DNA from: Candidatus Latescibacterota bacterium
Lineage (GTDB): Bacteria; Latescibacterota; UBA2968; UBA8231
Assembly: GCA_964291625.2 (NCBI GenBank)
Contig: OZ220089.1
Span: forward strand, 448,001-512,000
Direction of reading: 5' to 3'
Length of the DNA stretch: 64,000 nucleotides
Numbering within the stretch: the stretch's first letter is position 1; each line of letters opens with the position of its first letter. This document shows positions 13,801 through 23,408 of the stretch, in pieces. Position numbers and translations under genes: made by a program. Below the pieces are notes generated by a model. The model had not been told where the DNA came from. It saw only the letters and a list, made by a program, of their open reading frames with translations, and did not search any database.

Positions 13801-14000
13801 TGTCGACCATCACCAGCGCCCTGGGCATGCTGCCGCTGGTCATCTTCCCCGGCGCCGGGTCCGAGCTCTACCGGGGTCTGGGCAGCGTCGTGATCGGGGG
13901 GCTGCTGCTGTCGACGCTGTTCACCCTCTTTCTGGTGCCTACCTTCCTCAGCCTGGCGATGGACCTGAGGGCCTGGATCGGCCGGGGCGGGAGGGTGTAG
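10860..14000 (+). CDS. AcrB/AcrD/AcrF-family RND permease
   Basis: 1046 aa; GASPEEVE, GMVIDNAIV and RVRPIFMST motifs. Confidence 0.95.
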   Translation: MRLIATAIQRPVSVTVGVLLVALFGLISLFRIPVQLTPDIDRPIITVSTVWPGASPEEVEQEIVQRQEEQLRSVEGLVLMTSESNDSRGVVSLEFSVGVDPDAVMLLVSNKLDQVFGYPLDAERPVISAGGSGPSGAITWIMLQPLPDRGDLDIERYRDYAEEVVKTALERVPGVSRSNIYGGYERQLQVIVDPRAMAARQITVQDLAQALTRENANTSAGTFDEGKRRYIVRTVGQYQQPADIEKVVVRSADGTRVTVGEIARTRLGYVRTVASVRQKGTPAIAINAQRETGANVLEVMDGIRLTLRELNEGPLAREGLYLKQVYDETDYIDSAIGLVRSNIVIGGALAVTVLFIFLRSVSSVAIIATAIPISIVGTFLAMGLLGRNINVISLAGMSFAVGMVIDNAIVALENIFRHQQMGKTRVRAALDGASEVWGALLASTLTTVAIFLPIVFVEDEAGQLFRDIAIAVSCSVVLSLIVAISVIPSLANKILGGGERRRSRLVAWGEGVRTFIARSVFRISGSTVLRMGVIAGLIGLSLGIAITLLPKSEYLPTGNRNLIFGIVLPPPGYNLDELIQVGQTIEDVLRPHWEAASDPDGPQAQALSGPPIANMFFVAFGRSAFMGARSTDPARVRELIPIIQGPVLGGVPGTFAVVQQSSLFQRATGSGRSIDIDITGPDLDHLVGLGGRIFGQVRQVVPGSQARPIPSLDLGNPEVRILPDRVRAADLGLSAREIGSAVNALMDGALVDGYQFQGEEIDLVLRGEEDWFRTQDIANLPIYTPRGQLVPLSAVARVEVTTGPEQINHIERDRAITVRVIPPETVPLETALDALQTKIVQPLVDSGDLVPPYQIRLSGSADDLRRTRQALQWNFLLALLITYLLMAALFESFLYPFVIMLSVPPALAGGILGLEVVNRTLTYQPLDILTMLGFVILIGVVVNNAILIVHQTLNILREAPETPLREAIHDAVYSRVRPIFMSTITSALGMLPLVIFPGAGSELYRGLGSVVIGGLLLSTLFTLFLVPTFLSLAMDLRAWIGRGGRV

Positions 14001-14178
14001 AGGGCGGACCTCCCATGTCACCGAGCAAGCTGTTGCGCCAAGCCCTGAACCCATGGCCGGAAGAAGAGCGGCAGATCGCAAGAGGAAGTCGCCGATCTTC
14101 TCGGCAACCAGGCAGACACAGTCAAGAGACCATCTGCGCACCTCGCGCGGCCACCTCGGAAGAAAGGTTGTTTGCTTT

Positions 14179-15420
14179 ATGGTAGAGGACAATCTGCAGA
14201 AAGACCGTCCTTCGGGAGAGGAAGGTCCTGTCCATCAGGTCCTCCGTCTGATCGCACCGCAAGAAACCAAACACAGCGAGGACATCTACTCGCTCTTCGA
14301 CGCACTGGGCCGACCGGATCTGCGGGAGATGGGCCGGGCCGGACGGATCGCCGACAGCAAGCACGACTGGAAAACCTCCCGCGTCGGCTTTGTCGGTGAC
14401 CAGATCGCCACATACTATGGCGTATACGACCTCACCGTGCGGGTCGGGACCGCCCGTGTGAAGGCCGCTGGCGAGAATCTCTGCTATACTCACCCCGCCT
14501 ACGGGGAACGCTTCGGTGAGTTGATGGACCAAACGGTGGCGGAGGCGCTCGAAGCTATGCGCGACCAAGGCTACGACCTCGTCATCAACCTGGCCGGGCG
14601 AGAGTATGCTCGCTATGGCTATGTGCCGGTTTGGCGCTGCGAAGAGTGGAGAGTGGAGACAGCGGAGCTGCCACGCGAAGCGCCGGACTTTGAGTTGCAG
14701 CCCTTCGCGCCGACGCACCGCGAGGATCTGGCGGCGGTGTACAACAACACCAACGAGACGCTGACCGGTACTACCGTACGGCCGACCTATTTCCAGAACA
14801 AGGAGCCCGGCGGTTTCCAGGGCTGGCTGTGGACCGACGATAAGGATCGGCCTAGAGGCTATGTCACAGGCGGAGATGGGGGGAAGGATGTCTACGTCGA
14901 CGAACACGCGGGTCCAGCCGATGAGGTCCTCCAGGCCCTGGCGCTGATCGCGCGCCGTGGGGCCCATGATACGGTCCGCTTCCGGGGGTTGCCCTACAAC
15001 AGCCCCGTGGGCCAGAAGCTGAGGCAACTCCCCTCGTGCTCGATCGAATGGGTGGGTCCGCCCCGGGTTTATTTCGCCCGCATCGTCAACCTGCAATCCT
15101 TGTTCGAAAATCTGGTGCCCGAGCTGTCACGGCGCCTGGGAGCCTTCCCATTGGTGCAATGGGAAGGGGATCTGCTGATTTCAACGGGGGAGGAAGAGGT
15201 CGCCCTGCGCATCAAAGGGGCGGACGTAAGCGTCGTAACCACGGGAGAGATGACGCACGCGATTCGCGGCGGGCAGGATATCGTGCAGTTGGCGTTGGGG
15301 ACGGATACGCCGGAGGATGTGGTGGAACGCAATGGCATACGGCTCAGCGGTGATGCCGAGCAACTGGCAAAGATACTCTTTCCCGCGCAATACCCGATGT
15401 TCGGGAATCAGGACCTGTAA
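14179..15420 (+). CDS. GNAT (Eis-like) acetyltransferase with SCP2-like C-terminus
   Basis: YTHPAY...ELM...AMRDQGYD...YARYGY GNAT pattern, second GNAT-like half, C-terminal LFP; start uncertain (14053 or 14179); lower GC. Confidence 0.65.
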   Translation: MVEDNLQKDRPSGEEGPVHQVLRLIAPQETKHSEDIYSLFDALGRPDLREMGRAGRIADSKHDWKTSRVGFVGDQIATYYGVYDLTVRVGTARVKAAGENLCYTHPAYGERFGELMDQTVAEALEAMRDQGYDLVINLAGREYARYGYVPVWRCEEWRVETAELPREAPDFELQPFAPTHREDLAAVYNNTNETLTGTTVRPTYFQNKEPGGFQGWLWTDDKDRPRGYVTGGDGGKDVYVDEHAGPADEVLQALALIARRGAHDTVRFRGLPYNSPVGQKLRQLPSCSIEWVGPPRVYFARIVNLQSLFENLVPELSRRLGAFPLVQWEGDLLISTGEEEVALRIKGADVSVVTTGEMTHAIRGGQDIVQLALGTDTPEDVVERNGIRLSGDAEQLAKILFPAQYPMFGNQDL

Positions 15421-15497
15421 TCGGGCGGTCGTGTTGCAGCTCGTATCGGTGACTTGCTCTGCCTGACTCATTGGTCACGAAGCCACAGGAGATCCCC

Positions 15498-16565
15498 ATG
15501 CAATTCGGCCAGTTCTATCTGCTGGAAACCCCGCCCGGCAAGGACCACGCCCAGGTCTACCACGAGGCGTTCGAACAGTTCAAACTCATGGACGAGACGG
15601 GCTGGGACGCCATCTGGCTGGCGGAACACCACTTCGACCACAAGGCGCCGGGGGCCAACTACTACTCGGTCACCTCGTCCATCCATACCATGGCCGCGTA
15701 CGCCTCGGCCATCACCGAACGCATCAAGATCGGCACCGCGGTGGTCGTGCTGCCCTTCCACAATCCCGTCATCGTCGCGGAAGACTTCGCAACCGTCGAT
15801 ATCATGTCGAAGGGGCGGCTCCTCTTCGGCGTGGGGCGCGGCTACCAGGCCGAGGAGTTCTACAACTGGGGAATCGACCTGGAGGAGAGCCGCGACCGGT
15901 TCCAGGAAGAGCTGGACATCATCCTGAAAGCCTGGACGGGCCCCGTCGAATACGACGGCAGGTTCCACAAGGTCAGGAAGGTCAACGTCATCCCGAAGCC
16001 CGTACAACAGCCCCACCCGCCGGTCTACGTCGCGGCGGTGAGTCCCTCCACCTACGAGTGGGTCATCAAGAACGGCTACAACGTCCTGACCTCGTTCCTG
16101 CACCCCTACGACGAGGTCTTCCAGCTCTACGAGTCGTACCACAAGACCGCGGAGGCCTGCGGAATGTCGGGCCAACTGGACTTCCCCCTGGCGAGGTTCC
16201 TCTACGTGGCCGAGTCCACTCAGAAAGCCCGGGAGGAATGCCACGACCAGCTCATGTGGTACTTCCGCACCCTCCTGGCCGAGGTGATCGCGCCGCCGCC
16301 GGAGATGGCGCCTCCCGGCCAGATGGAGTTCTACCAGGGACTGAAACAGAAGTTCTCAGAGATTACCTTCGACGAGATCCTCGCCGATCACGCCATCGTG
16401 GGCGATCCGGACTTCGTCGCCGACAAGATCGGCTGGATCCAGAAGCACACGGGACTGCAGAACTTCATGGGGTGGACCCGCATCGGAGACCTGAGCCCCG
16501 ACCTGGTCTGCAAGTCCCTTCGGATGTTCTCCGAGCACGTAGCGCCCGCCTTCAAGGAGGCTTGA
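15498..16565 (+). CDS. Luciferase-like (LLM) flavin-dependent monooxygenase
   Basis: WLAEHHF, TERIKIGTAV, SKGRLLFGVGRGY, PKPVQQPHPP; AGGAG RBS. Confidence 0.93.
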   Translation: MQFGQFYLLETPPGKDHAQVYHEAFEQFKLMDETGWDAIWLAEHHFDHKAPGANYYSVTSSIHTMAAYASAITERIKIGTAVVVLPFHNPVIVAEDFATVDIMSKGRLLFGVGRGYQAEEFYNWGIDLEESRDRFQEELDIILKAWTGPVEYDGRFHKVRKVNVIPKPVQQPHPPVYVAAVSPSTYEWVIKNGYNVLTSFLHPYDEVFQLYESYHKTAEACGMSGQLDFPLARFLYVAESTQKAREECHDQLMWYFRTLLAEVIAPPPEMAPPGQMEFYQGLKQKFSEITFDEILADHAIVGDPDFVADKIGWIQKHTGLQNFMGWTRIGDLSPDLVCKSLRMFSEHVAPAFKEA

Positions 16566-16568
16566 CCA

Positions 16569-16994
16569 ATGTCATCCAGTGCAAACGCGCGTATCGCCCG
16601 CGAATCCCTCGAAGCCGCCTTCGCCTGCGACTGGAAGCGCCTCCGCGAAACCTACGCCGACGACGCAACCATGGTCGGCGGCGGACTCGACCTCCGCGGC
16701 GCCGATGACATGGTGGCGCTCTGGCGGGGCTGCCACGAGGAAGAGCGGGGCCTGCGGCTCGAGATTCTCAACCTCGTCGCCGACGATGAGATGGCCGTCG
16801 TGGAGTTCCGCCACAAGGGCGTCGTGAACCAGCCTCTCCCCGGACTGCCCGAAGCGTTGTATGGCAGACGCCTGGAGGCGACCGAGGTGCACCTGTTCCG
16901 GATTCAGGACGGAAAGATCACCGCCATCACCATCTATGGCGGTGTGCTTGAGTCTCCCGACGTTCCGCTCAGGCGGGTCTGGGTGACCGAGTAG
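16569..16994 (+). CDS. SnoaL/NTF2-like (ester cyclase-like) protein
   Basis: YADDA...LRG...VVEF...FRIQDGKI pattern. Confidence 0.8.
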   Translation: MSSSANARIARESLEAAFACDWKRLRETYADDATMVGGGLDLRGADDMVALWRGCHEEERGLRLEILNLVADDEMAVVEFRHKGVVNQPLPGLPEALYGRRLEATEVHLFRIQDGKITAITIYGGVLESPDVPLRRVWVTE

Positions 16995-17057
16995 GGAAGT
17001 CGGCCTGCCGCAGTGTGAGCACCACGGATACACTCCAGGCCACCAATAGGGGAAACC

Positions 17058-17879
17058 ATGAGCGACCATATTGCCGCGCCCGTGCCCATGACGGAAGAGC
17101 AGAAGTTCTTCTACGACCTCCAGGGTTGGATCCTGTTGCCTTCCGTCCTGTCCGAAGCGGAAGTCGAAGTGATGAAGGCCGAGGTCTACGACGGCGCCAG
17201 GCAGAGCTACCAGGGTGCCCTGCAGGAGCTCCTGGACCATCCTGCGGTGACCGGCATCCTCACCGAAATCCTTGCCGAAGAGCCGTTCCTCGGAGACGAC
17301 TATCACAGCTTCCGCTGCGAGGGCTCCTTCGTCACCGTGCGGCACGCCGGCTGGAAGAGCGACGGGGAGGGCACCGGCCTGCCGCACGTGGTGCGGCCGC
17401 CGCAACAGGCCAATGCCATGCGCTACCAGGTCGCGGGCAAGAAGATCTTCTCCGGGCTCACCCGGGTCGTGTGGGAGCTCGAAGAGGTGAAAGCCGGTCA
17501 AGGGGGCACCACGTTTCTCTCCGGCTCCCACAAGGCCCACTTCAACTACGGCGGCCCCGACCCCAACCAGCCCAATATCCGCGAGTCTCCCTGGGAGGAA
17601 GGCATGCGCGCGGCCATGGCTCAATACAGCTGCCCGCCCGGCTCGGCCATCATCTTCACCGAAAGCCTGCTGCACGCGGCCAACGACTGGCGCAACACGG
17701 ACAATCCGCGCTGCGCCGTGTTCAACTGCTACAATTCCCTGTGGGCTCAATGGCACCGACTCAACCTCGGCCACGAGATCATCGAGGCCATGCCGCCCAG
17801 GCGCCGCTCCTTGTTCCGCGGCACGTGGCAGCTGGGCGGCGAGAATCACGCCTACTCGCTGGACAATCGTTCGATCTGA
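17058..17879 (+). CDS. Phytanoyl-CoA dioxygenase (PhyH)-family protein
   Basis: EQKFFYDLQGW, GGTTFLSGSHK, GSAIIFTESLLH motifs. Confidence 0.85.
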   Translation: MSDHIAAPVPMTEEQKFFYDLQGWILLPSVLSEAEVEVMKAEVYDGARQSYQGALQELLDHPAVTGILTEILAEEPFLGDDYHSFRCEGSFVTVRHAGWKSDGEGTGLPHVVRPPQQANAMRYQVAGKKIFSGLTRVVWELEEVKAGQGGTTFLSGSHKAHFNYGGPDPNQPNIRESPWEEGMRAAMAQYSCPPGSAIIFTESLLHAANDWRNTDNPRCAVFNCYNSLWAQWHRLNLGHEIIEAMPPRRRSLFRGTWQLGGENHAYSLDNRSI

Positions 17880-17906
17880 CGTGCGTCGTCTCTCAGGAGG
17901 TCCAGG

Positions 17907-18371
17907 ATGGACCGGTACCGGCTCTCCCCCTTCGTCGAAACACCGCTCCGGGCGAGCCTGGCGATCCTGGCCGTCAACGCGGCCGTGATCCTGGCCTCCG
18001 GGATCATCTTCGGGGTTCTCGGAGTCGTCTCGAACCGGTGGGAGGCCGCCCCGCTCCTCGCCTTGCCGCTCTTCCTGCTCTTCGTCGTCGGCTCGTTCGG
18101 CGCGTGGTATCTCTTCGGGCGCCTGCTCCGGGGACGGTTCACGGTCCCGCAGCGTCTGACGGCCGCCGCCGTGGGAGTCCTTCCCATCGCAGCCGCCGCC
18201 TGGCTGATCGAGGCTCGCGCCGAAGGGGCCATGTGCGGAATCCTGGGCGCCTATGTGACGGGTGTGGGCGCCGGCGTGACGGCCTTTCTCACGGTCATGA
18301 TCGCCAGCGGCATCGACCCCCGCTTCGACCTGGACTCCGGCGGCCGACGGTCGCCCACGCCCTCCGCCTGA
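17907..18371 (+). CDS. Hypothetical membrane protein (about 4 TM)
   Basis: AGGAGG RBS; hydrophobic helices. Confidence 0.65.
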   Translation: MDRYRLSPFVETPLRASLAILAVNAAVILASGIIFGVLGVVSNRWEAAPLLALPLFLLFVVGSFGAWYLFGRLLRGRFTVPQRLTAAAVGVLPIAAAAWLIEARAEGAMCGILGAYVTGVGAGVTAFLTVMIASGIDPRFDLDSGGRRSPTPSA

Positions 18372-18432
18372 TCCACCCCGCCGCGCCGGGTATCCGGGCC
18401 TCCTGGCGCCCGACCCCAATGGCACTGACCGG

Positions 18433-19347
18433 ATGAGAACCCTCCTCATCCCCATCGCCGCTGCCATGGCCCTGTCGAGCCTCTTCTCCTGCTCGGGGAA
18501 TGATGACAGGCAGCTCAACGAACCCGGCACGGACGCAACCGGCCTGTCGACGCGATCCCTACTGCATGACGGCGTGGCCAAGGAGTACATCCTGTATGTG
18601 CCGGATTCCTACGATGGCACTTCGGACGTTCCGCTGATGCTCAACTTCCACGGCTTCGGGGGGACGGCGGAGGAATACCTGAACTACGCGGACATGCGGT
18701 CCCTGGCCGAGATGGACACCTTCCTCCTCGTCTATCCTCAAGGCACCTTGCTGGATGGTGATCCGCACTGGAATGCCGGTCTGGAATCGGAGGAGAACAA
18801 GAGCGACGCCGATGACTTCGGCTTCGTGGAAGCCTTGATCGACGAACTCTCCTCCGCGTACAGCATCGATGAAACGAGAGTATATGCCTGCGGCTACTCG
18901 AACGGCGCCTTCTTCGCCTATGCCCTTGCCTGCTATCACGGCGACAGGATAGCGGCCATCGGCTCCGTTGCCGGCACCATGATGGAGGAGACATACGCCA
19001 ACTGCGGCCCGTCCCACCCGACGGCCGTGGTGAGCATCCACGGCACATCCGACAAGGTTGTCCCCTATGACGGGGGTGAGGGGCTGGTCTCGGTTGACGA
19101 GGTGCTCGCCTACTGGACGGGTTTCAACAAGACGAGCACCGCCCCGGCGAAAGACAGCAGGAACGACCGGGGAACGACGATACAGCACTACTCATATGCG
19201 GACGGAGACAGCGGTATTTCCGTGGAGCACTACAAGGTGGTCGGCGGAGATCACGTCTGGTTCGAAATCCGCTACGACGGCTCAGATACGAGTGGTCTGA
19301 TCTGGGACTTCGTGTCGAGGTATTCCATCGACGGACTGAGACGGTAG
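18433..19347 (+). CDS. PHB-depolymerase/LpqC-family esterase, probable lipoprotein
   Basis: Lipobox-like LFSC; FHGFGG, VYPQG, GYSNG nucleophile elbow, HGTSD, GGDHVW. Confidence 0.85.
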   Translation: MRTLLIPIAAAMALSSLFSCSGNDDRQLNEPGTDATGLSTRSLLHDGVAKEYILYVPDSYDGTSDVPLMLNFHGFGGTAEEYLNYADMRSLAEMDTFLLVYPQGTLLDGDPHWNAGLESEENKSDADDFGFVEALIDELSSAYSIDETRVYACGYSNGAFFAYALACYHGDRIAAIGSVAGTMMEETYANCGPSHPTAVVSIHGTSDKVVPYDGGEGLVSVDEVLAYWTGFNKTSTAPAKDSRNDRGTTIQHYSYADGDSGISVEHYKVVGGDHVWFEIRYDGSDTSGLIWDFVSRYSIDGLRR

Positions 19348-19420
19348 AGCCGGGGCTTGCCCTCTACCCTGGCATTCCAGACGTTACCCCGAGAGACAAC
19401 AACAGAAAGGGAGAACACCC

Positions 19421-20158
19421 ATGTCAGGAATCGAACCCGCATCCCGATTGACCCGCCTGGACGGTGCCAGGATCGGACTTCTGGACCCGGGAAAGCGTAC
19501 TACAGGAGCCATTCTCGAGGCGGTCGGGGAGCGGCTCGCAGCAGAGCACGACGCGCACCCGGTCGGGCCCTGGAGAAAGTCATCCCCCTACCGCGTCTGC
19601 ACGAAGAAACTGCTGGAGGAAGTGGTTCCCCGGTGCGACGCGCTCGTCATGGGGGTCGTGGACTGATGCGGCGCAAGCTCGTGCAGTTTGCACGACATGC
19701 TGGAGTTCGAGCTGAGAGGCATTCCGACCGCCTACATCACGGCCGCGGGAAGGGTTCCACGGATCGAGCGTGATGGCGACGGGTTCAGCCTGTCCCACGC
19801 GACAGGGAGCTACCTGGTCGAGGGATGGGAGGACCCCGGTCCGCAGTCGGACAAGGTGCATCGGAGGCTGATGCACTTCGGAGTACACCGCAGGATGAGG
19901 ATGTGCGGTGTGGAGGAGGGGGACCGGGTCCGCTACGGCGGCAGGGACCTGCGATGGGAGTATCCTCGAGAGGAACAGGAAGCCCGGTTCAGGCCTCCCG
20001 GAGCCGGCGCCTGGTCGAGCCCCCTTGACGGCGTCGCAGGCTACAGGTGGATCGAGCTGCGCGCCTTTTCCCTGCCCGTGGAAGGCGATGAGTTCGAGGA
20101 AAGCGTGGAGGAGGCCGTCCCCCAGGTGGTGTCGATTCTGACAGGTGGAGGGACGTGA
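19421..20158 (+). CDS. UGSC-family-like selenoprotein (in-frame UGA at 19664-19666 read as Sec) with an inserted Obg-C-terminal-like domain
   Basis: ORFs 19421-19666 and 19688-20158 are in the same frame; the joined read is GVVD-U-CGASSCSLHD...ELRGIPT; SECIS-like hairpin 12 nt after the UGA. Confidence 0.8.
19679..19695 (+). promoter_or_regulatory. Bacterial SECIS element
   Basis: TCGTGCA-GTT-TGCACGA: perfect 7-bp stem, loop beginning GU; resembles the E. coli fdhF SECIS core in sequence and spacing. Confidence 0.75.
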
Positions 20159-20205
20159 GTTCGCGATCCGCCGGCCGATCGCCTCGGGGCCGTCGCCAAT
20201 CCTGG

Positions 20206-23408
<3,203 letters not shown>

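Follow-up and report, generated by a model that had tools for sequence, protein, structure and literature searches.

We analysed a stretch of 64,000 nucleotides (nt) from Candidatus Latescibacterota bacterium (contig OZ220089.1, positions 448,001 to 512,000; hereafter, the window), which contains a predicted selenoprotein gene related to the UGSC family. The gene occupies a single frame on the plus strand (19421-20158; 245 codons and a terminal TGA), which opens with an ATG at 19421, ends with a TGA at 20156-20158 and is interrupted only by a TGA at 19664-19666. Under translation table 11, the frame is divided into 2 open reading frames (ORFs), 19421..19666 and 19688..20158. An earlier model-made annotation of these letters (the original prediction) had regarded the 2 same-frame ORFs, separated only by the TGA at 19664-19666, as a hidden selenoprotein gene followed by a perfect hairpin starting 12 nt past the UGA, and both the interrupted frame and the hairpin were confirmed. 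With the TGA read as selenocysteine (Sec, U), the read-through product has 245 amino acids (aa) and contains GVVD-U-CGASSCSLHDMLEFELRGIPT; the peptide across the UGA reads VVD-U-CGASSCSLHDMLEFELR, the motif of this gene being D-U-C-G-A-S-S-C. A sequence resembling a ribosome-binding site, GAAAGGGAG (19405..19413, plus strand), lies 7 nt upstream of the ATG, and a GAAAGGAG-like site is found at equal spacing from the ATG or GTG in 20 of the 21 full-length relatives, being absent only at locus L073. The gene is hidden in current annotation because only fragments of it are on record: in a word-indexed search of protein databases, all 31 matches were C-terminal pieces covering 34-63% of the query, and the 81-aa N-terminal piece of the window gene is deposited as a separate protein (P0036, 100% identical). 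We consider it highly probable that the locus encodes one 245-residue selenoprotein of a long-form branch of the UGSC family, with hairpin-directed insertion of Sec at residue 82, a flavodoxin-like core, an Obg-like insert and a presumed redox role.

The genome from which the window originates carries the machinery for Sec insertion, as the original prediction would require. The selA (517.6 bits; cut-off 267.9) and selB (341.6 bits; cut-off 242.25) genes adjoin each other and a tRNA-Sec gene (Rfam 74.2 bits; ARAGORN anticodon TCA), all 3 forming one minus-strand cluster (G000:C1:3423794-3427224; loci L001, L007 and L016), and selD (324.8 bits) is located elsewhere in the same genome (G000:C1:1116503-1117309; locus L014). 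The selA match is split into 2 parts, 3-409 and 408-454, which differ in frame or position, as could be explained by a frameshift or an alignment artefact. The selD gene has one in-frame TGA of its own, and SelD is therefore itself probably a selenoprotein, judging from its sequence.

The position of the UGA is strictly conserved. A scan of one genome per species yielded 22 loci, 21 of them full-length, and in all 22 aligned sequences of this clade, down to 64% nucleotide identity, TGA occupies the Sec column, always inside D-U-C-G-A-S-S-C-S-L-H-D. The near-identical loci (L053-L074) are labelled inconsistently, 4 as Gemmatimonadota/Gemmatimonadaceae, 17 as Candidatus Latescibacterota and 1 as an uncultured bacterium. 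The family is represented in 46 of the 168 phylum genomes scanned, and each of the places that cover the column, 24 of 24 long-form and 24 of 24 short-form, contains exactly one TGA. In 61 related genomes (including the window's own), we found 9 places in 7 genomes with copies 64-100% identical, each with one TGA; the window gene is the only PF24696-type gene in its own genome. Synonymous differences between pairs of sequences outnumber nonsynonymous ones both upstream (4610:2421) and downstream (7529:6473) of the UGA, and both halves thus evolve as coding sequence. One genome (G113) has, besides an intact copy, 2 stray C-terminal long-form pieces on contig G113:C1 (955455-955727 and 2294901-2295098; L110 and L111), which span profile positions 151-241 and 177-241 and are probably gene remnants.

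A HMMER search of 1.84 billion representative sequences revealed 162 relatives. The full-length Cys homologues (212-254 aa, 33-45% identity) have Cys at the Sec column, as the original prediction had anticipated, and among the 100 cluster representatives covering the motif (88 short and 12 long, query included), the residue found here is Cys in all 12 long and in 83 of the short sequences. Several metagenome runs, sponge-derived or marine, contain contigs with relatives of window positions 18400-20700 (95-99% alike); a metatranscriptome library (X2) is among them. In that library, contigs 95-99% alike flank the UGA on both sides with the TGA unchanged; no contig bridges the UGA under a 31-letter rule and carry-over of DNA is possible, so expression is not demonstrated. 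The UGA could instead be an ordinary stop, with 2 small genes or a decayed gene at the locus and the hairpin arising as a by-product of the encoded peptide. This would agree with the output of gene callers, which give the 81-aa P0036 and pieces of about 150 aa, and with the partial nature of all 31 database matches. However, in all 48 places of the phylum, a single column has TGA, and neither another stop codon (TAA or TAG) nor a sense codon occurs there; both halves are under purifying selection and contribute strands to one predicted fold; Cys stands at the column in homologues; apart from the in-frame Leu90 and Met93 codons, no separate start is conserved for the second ORF; and the Sec machinery is present in the genome. 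We accordingly regard an ordinary stop as extremely improbable. Collectively, the machinery, the conserved TGA, the Cys homologues and the conserved hairpin described below support Sec insertion, and on these comparative grounds UGA 19664-19666 is the Sec codon of an intact, genuine and mis-annotated selenoprotein gene.

The hairpin (19679..19695, plus strand) resembles a selenocysteine insertion sequence (SECIS) element and reads UCGUGCA-GUU-UGCACGA, with arms at 19679-19685 and 19689-19695 enclosing a 3-nt loop that starts with G-U (19686-19688), for a stem of 7 bp. The original prediction likened the element to the SECIS of E. coli fdhF, a resemblance that is conjectural. Perfect 7-bp hairpins with loops of 3-8 nt number 64 per strand in the window, and just 3 of its 634 TGA trinucleotides are followed by a 7-bp hairpin 8-20 nt downstream. 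All 22 clade sequences keep the stem unaltered, and the sole change in the hairpin affects the third base of the loop. Synonymous-site entropy at invariant residues averages 0.27 over codons 83-92, compared with upstream and downstream values of 0.66 and 0.72; of 100 sliding windows, the 8 with the lowest entropy are all located at codons 81-100 (permutation p = 0.0015). Short-form genes of the phylum, the proteins of which are only about 31% identical, likewise have a CGUGC(A)/(U)GCACG stem 12-13 nt past the UGA, with GUG, GUU or UGUAU loops. The UGSC gene of cultivable Gemmatimonas-type bacteria has this stem as well. The stem also persists in L105, a divergent long form from a metagenome, where a CAC-to-CGC change (His to Arg) replaces a U-A pair by a U-G wobble. 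A minimum-free-energy fold in which GUCGUG ahead of the UGA pairs with the 3' arm was dropped because substitutions in relatives (GTT/GTG/ATG...GTC) break it. The hairpin, located within the coding sequence, would thus direct recoding of the UGA by SelB with tRNA-Sec, the product being a presumably cytoplasmic protein.

The assignment of the protein to the UGSC superfamily by the original prediction was borne out by a match to Pfam PF24696 (85.2 bits; cut-off 25), which covers only profile positions 16-119 of 172 and defines an initial segment of the UGSC domain (residues 5-108; 19433..19744, plus strand), corresponding to beta1-beta4 of the predicted core. UGSC-containing proteins, characterised by a UxxC motif, have been described as an abundant family of selenoproteins, the function of which is unknown (PMC2398784, PMC1976440, PMC9312934, PMC13188914); they rank among the most abundant aquatic selenoproteins and were represented by 255 Sec and 21 Cys forms in the Global Ocean Sampling (GOS) metagenomes (PMC2398784). 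The window protein shares with this family (PF24696; NF041046) the Sec column after G-x-x-D, followed by S/T-C-S-x-H-D ... E..RG.P, a SECIS stem of one type at equal distance and the predominance of Sec forms, which far outnumber Cys forms; the pattern GD-U-GSC...HD...E..GIP, which the original prediction gave for the family, holds in the short-form genes. It differs in reading U-C-G-A where the family has U-G-S-C, and in its length: the family proteins are single-domain and of about 150-190 residues, whereas the window protein has 245, owing to some 100 residues inserted between strands 4 and 5.

The motif has Cys at +1 (Cys83; 19667..19669) and Ala at +3 relative to Sec82, and hence does not conform to UxxC (U/C-G-S-C). 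Among the short cluster representatives, +1 is Gly in 80 of 88 and Cys in none, +3 is Cys in 72 and +6 is Cys in 24; among the 12 long representatives, Cys is found at +1 in the query and in P0035, at +3 in P0035 and the 560-aa P0102, and at +6 in 7. The original prediction had held that UxxC is replaced here by a vicinal U-C pair plus a distal Cys. The substitutions at +1 and +3 stand, but Cys88 at +6 is no replacement because canonical forms of the phylum also have it (U-G-S-C-T-T-C). Nor is the change at +3 peculiar to the window gene: absence of a Cys at +3 characterises the entire long-form branch (10 of 12 representatives), and most of its members lack Cys at +1 too. The different chemistry that the original prediction had suggested on these grounds is conceivable. 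In a sister long-form group, the motif is D-C-G-H-G-S-S-C, and His is found at +2 in 6 of the 12 long forms. A Cys directly after the Sec column was seen only in the window clade, where it is invariant, in the Cys form P0035 (C-C-A-C) and in L105, a Sec form only 35% identical that reads N-U-C-S-A-A-S-C. A metagenome scan with a narrow long-form alignment yielded L105 alone, so that the U-C pair is confirmed in just one additional Sec lineage. Other long-form clusters that are putative Sec forms are represented by C-terminal fragments (P0046, P0050, P0052, P0058, P0061, P0062 and P0078). Two further loci, L107 (G036:C21:42500-42841) and L108 (G023:C2:1165624-1165941), are UGSC matches with a TGA in open frames of 551-557 aa, possibly fused or multi-domain UGSC forms; a motif scan did not pick them up. 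Thus, the window protein is a member of the UGSC superfamily but not a canonical one, and the long-form branch, with its nested Obg-C-terminal-like domain and Sec-Cys pair, is a novel variation on this known family. In the passages of the literature that deal with UGSC selenoproteins and were considered here, there is no mention of a U-C variant or of an Obg-like insert.

These differences could be neutral drift in U-C-G-A and passive decoration by the insert, in a protein that works as canonical UGSC proteins do. The common superfamily, Sec column and SECIS stem, together with the +6 Cys found also in canonical forms of the phylum, are compatible with such a continuity of function. Yet +1 and +3 are constrained in the short forms, as their Gly and Cys frequencies indicate, and both are altered here; moreover, U-C is kept in 2 Sec lineages that are only 35% identical, and the insert, too, shows conservation, G154, R157, R160, G163, G167, V170 and W179 being invariant. 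Unaltered canonical function hence appears improbable to us.

The original prediction was correct in describing a UGSC-family protein but missed the insert of about 100 residues, which spans residues ~109-208 (19745-20044), after which, as judged from alignment with the short forms, the chain rejoins the last strand and C-terminal helix of the family. This return to the UGSC core (20045..20155, plus strand) comprises strand 210-213 and helix 222-241 in the short-form alignment and the structural model. Within the insert, residues 112-178 (19754..19954, plus strand) form an Obg-C-terminal-like module (DUF1967, or OCT, the C-terminal domain of Obg). The corresponding profile, PF09269, matches 22 of the 24 long-form members at E <= 0.1, with 4.1e-12 as the best value, and scores 14.7 bits with the window protein alone, below the cut-off of 27; a long-form profile in turn matches residues 344-411 of Thermus Obg (1udx; E 3e-5). 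Besides the 7 residues named above, D203 and G204 are invariant or nearly so across the branch. The insert shares with the C-terminal domain of Obg/CgtA a G-x-H-R-A-L-R-x-A-G-x-x-x-G-D-x-V module, but the window protein has neither the GTPase nor the Obg-fold domain, and the module is nested inside another domain. It may serve as a docking or ligand-binding module. A UGSC/Unknown_1 fusion, in which an additional conserved domain of unknown function lies upstream or downstream of UGSC, is described from the GOS metagenomes in an earlier report (PMC2398784). That protein, as here, combines UGSC with an extra domain, which is described there as a fusion, whereas the domain found here is a nested insert; Unknown_1 may or may not be equivalent to it. 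A full-text literature search returned no paper that pairs DUF1967 with selenocysteine.

An AlphaFold2 (AF2) model built from a 77-row alignment had a predicted local distance difference test (pLDDT) score of 92.7 and a predicted template modelling (pTM) score of 0.89; it replaced a first model from 9 close sequences (pLDDT 71.9), which was weak near Sec. The predicted order is strand 17-22, helix 28-43, strand 46-52, helix 62-71, strand 74-80, Sec82, helix 83-98, strand 103-108, the insert, strand 210-213 and helix 222-241. The listed matches from Foldseek and VIA-align were flavodoxin-like alpha/beta/alpha sandwiches, for instance lumazine synthase, flavodoxin-like reductases, receiver domains and lobes of sugar-binding proteins, the best being generic flavodoxin- or Rossmann-like folds (VIA Z 10.1; Foldseek E about 8e-4). 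Among the matches listed, the structure searches gave no functional relative, and there was no thioredoxin-fold entry among the 50 from either program, which does not in itself exclude that fold. The model suggests that the UGSC core is flavodoxin-like rather than thioredoxin-like, whereas a thioredoxin-like fold is presumed for UGSC proteins in the literature (PMC2398784).

In this model, Sec82 (19664..19666) is found where strand 3 (74-80) ends and helix 83-98 has its N-terminus, a location that would fit a nucleophilic or redox role, and Sec82 may accordingly be the redox-active nucleophile of an oxidoreductase. Three Cys residues could be its partners. Cys72 (19634..19636), invariant in the clade and Cys in 51 of the 88 short representatives, and Sec82 are at opposite ends of strand 3, and Cys88 (19682..19684), the codon of which lies within the 5' arm of the hairpin, is 6 residues into the helix. 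For these reasons, Cys83 would be the nearest partner, as far as secondary structure alone indicates. Since the +3 Cys of the family is Ala here, Cys83 is also the likeliest residue to resolve the oxidised state, as a vicinal selenenylsulfide, a tentative proposal to which we give clearly less than an even chance. Resolution by Cys88, which would need local unwinding of the helix, seems rather unlikely. The vicinal pair resembles that of animal thioredoxin reductase, which has a Cys-Sec redox centre (G-C-U-G) on a flexible C-terminal tail, and adjacent Sec and Cys residues can form an eight-membered selenenylsulfide ring. The likeness is one of analogy, with no homology claimed: here the order is reversed (U-C), the pair is internal, at the N-terminus of a helix, and the fold is unrelated.

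Alternatively, Cys72, Sec82, Cys83 and Cys88 could together form a metal or iron-sulfur site, in which case the protein would be a metal-handling or cluster-carrying module. All 4 residues are invariant in the clade; the sister group, with D-C-G-H-G-S-S-C and the recurrent His at +2, resembles a Cys/His ligand set; and a table in a 2026 review includes a GxUC motif in an unrelated prokaryotic (2Fe-2S)-binding selenoprotein of the CopZ family. On the other hand, Cys72 precedes and Sec82 follows the 7-residue strand 74-80 in the model, placing them at opposite ends, and no relative with a metal site was present among the structural matches listed. The candidate ligands also vary across the 12 long forms, in which only the Sec/Cys column is invariant, with Cys at +1 in 2, at +3 in 2, at +6 in 7 and at position 72 in 7. 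A metal site is thus assigned little probability, and a redox-active Sec82 is preferred.

The selenoprotein gene is the last in a plus-strand run that encodes GNAT-like, luciferase-like monooxygenase, SnoaL-like and PhyH-type proteins, a small membrane protein and an esterase. The PhyH-family Fe(II)/2-oxoglutarate dioxygenase (17058..17879, 273 aa) matches PF05721 at 33.2 bits (cut-off 22), and the alpha/beta-hydrolase (esterase; 18433..19347) lies directly upstream of the selenoprotein gene. The longest ORF of this region, at 17015-18436, would encode 473 aa, is Arg/Pro-rich and matches no family; it is spurious, and the real genes, which use another frame, encode PhyH (17058-17879) and a hydrophobic protein of 154 aa (17907-18371), with an ordinary TGA stop between them. 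On the minus strand, a convergent gene for a two-domain VOC protein of the glyoxalase/dioxygenase type (20206..20970) lies 47 nt past the selenoprotein stop. Its second domain is 12 residues shorter than that of the L051 orthologue, and the listed ORF, which uses an upstream TTG start at 21249, over-extends the gene by 93 codons. A KatG gene lies beyond it.

We compared the neighbourhoods of 23 loci, the window and 22 others. Of these, 20 have a PhyH-type gene no more than 3 kb away, with 4 mutually divergent types in differing arrangements, 16 have a VOC gene and 8 have an esterase gene; an association with KatG (3 of 23) or AhpC (2 of 23) was not treated as conserved. At L105, the 361-aa protein encoded directly after the selenoprotein (L105:838-1923) contains a CMD/AhpD-like domain, of a family that is often redox-active. 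The G+C content of the window is 62-73%; in the 14-20 kb region (14000-20200), it is 62-64%, against about 70% on either side, and this low-G+C stretch contains the whole plus-strand run that ends with the selenoprotein gene. The gene is present in 1 of 9 other genomes of the same genus, which shares the entire island, and in 14 of 15 genomes of another genus of the class. The patchy distribution within the genus and the shared low-G+C island suggest that the run was acquired laterally. Another genome, G052, has 3 long-form copies on 3 contigs (L046, L047 and L048), 2 of which are 85-86% identical to the window protein, whereas the third is a paralogue with 64% identity that has neither PhyH nor VOC as a neighbour; about 3 kb from the L046 copy lies a gene for a DDE transposase.

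Several observations weigh against the reading of the locus as one hairpin-directed UGSC selenoprotein with a redox role and conserved partners. Sec insertion is read from sequence comparison alone. The folding energy of a 71-nt stretch is ordinary for G+C-rich DNA (z = -0.93), so that the weight of the hairpin lies in its conservation and not in its energy. No double compensatory base-pair change was seen in the hairpin comparisons, and constraints on protein and RNA are entangled because the hairpin overlaps the conserved peptide S-C-S-L-H-D. An Rfam E-value scan of 19500-19900 returned no SECIS family, only a chance long non-coding RNA at E = 5. The score against the NCBIfam equivalog NF041046, 61.3 bits, does not reach the cut-off of 125. 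The redox role of Sec82 is assigned by analogy, and the varying Cys positions leave no resolving partner general to the long-form branch. Finally, a PhyH gene was not found at L059, L062, L073 or on the short contig of L105, and the neighbour counts are not independent because a few related genera account for most of the 23 loci.

Within the proposed scheme, the weakest step is that the protein would serve the neighbouring PhyH and VOC enzymes in their handling of an oxidised small molecule. Extended to the branch, this would make the long-form UGSC proteins an undescribed class of selenoenzymes, with a Sec-Cys pair in place of UxxC and an Obg-like recruiting domain, acting together with PhyH and VOC proteins; we put this forward as speculative and unlikely to hold in full. 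If it were true, the dioxygenase might, for example, form an oxidised or electrophilic compound that the selenoenzyme would reduce or trap. The gene nonetheless provides a naturally occurring variant, with the presumed resolving Cys shifted from +3 to +1, and as such offers a handle on the function of UGSC proteins; the recurrent neighbourhood with a PhyH dioxygenase and a VOC enzyme is a further handle on the family, and the nested Obg-C-terminal-like domain may point to a UGSC partner. The high-confidence model suggests that the thioredoxin-like fold presumed for the family should be re-examined. Furthermore, because the gene is fragmented in every protein set searched, the selenoproteomes of Gemmatimonadota-type, sponge- and marine-associated bacteria are under-counted.

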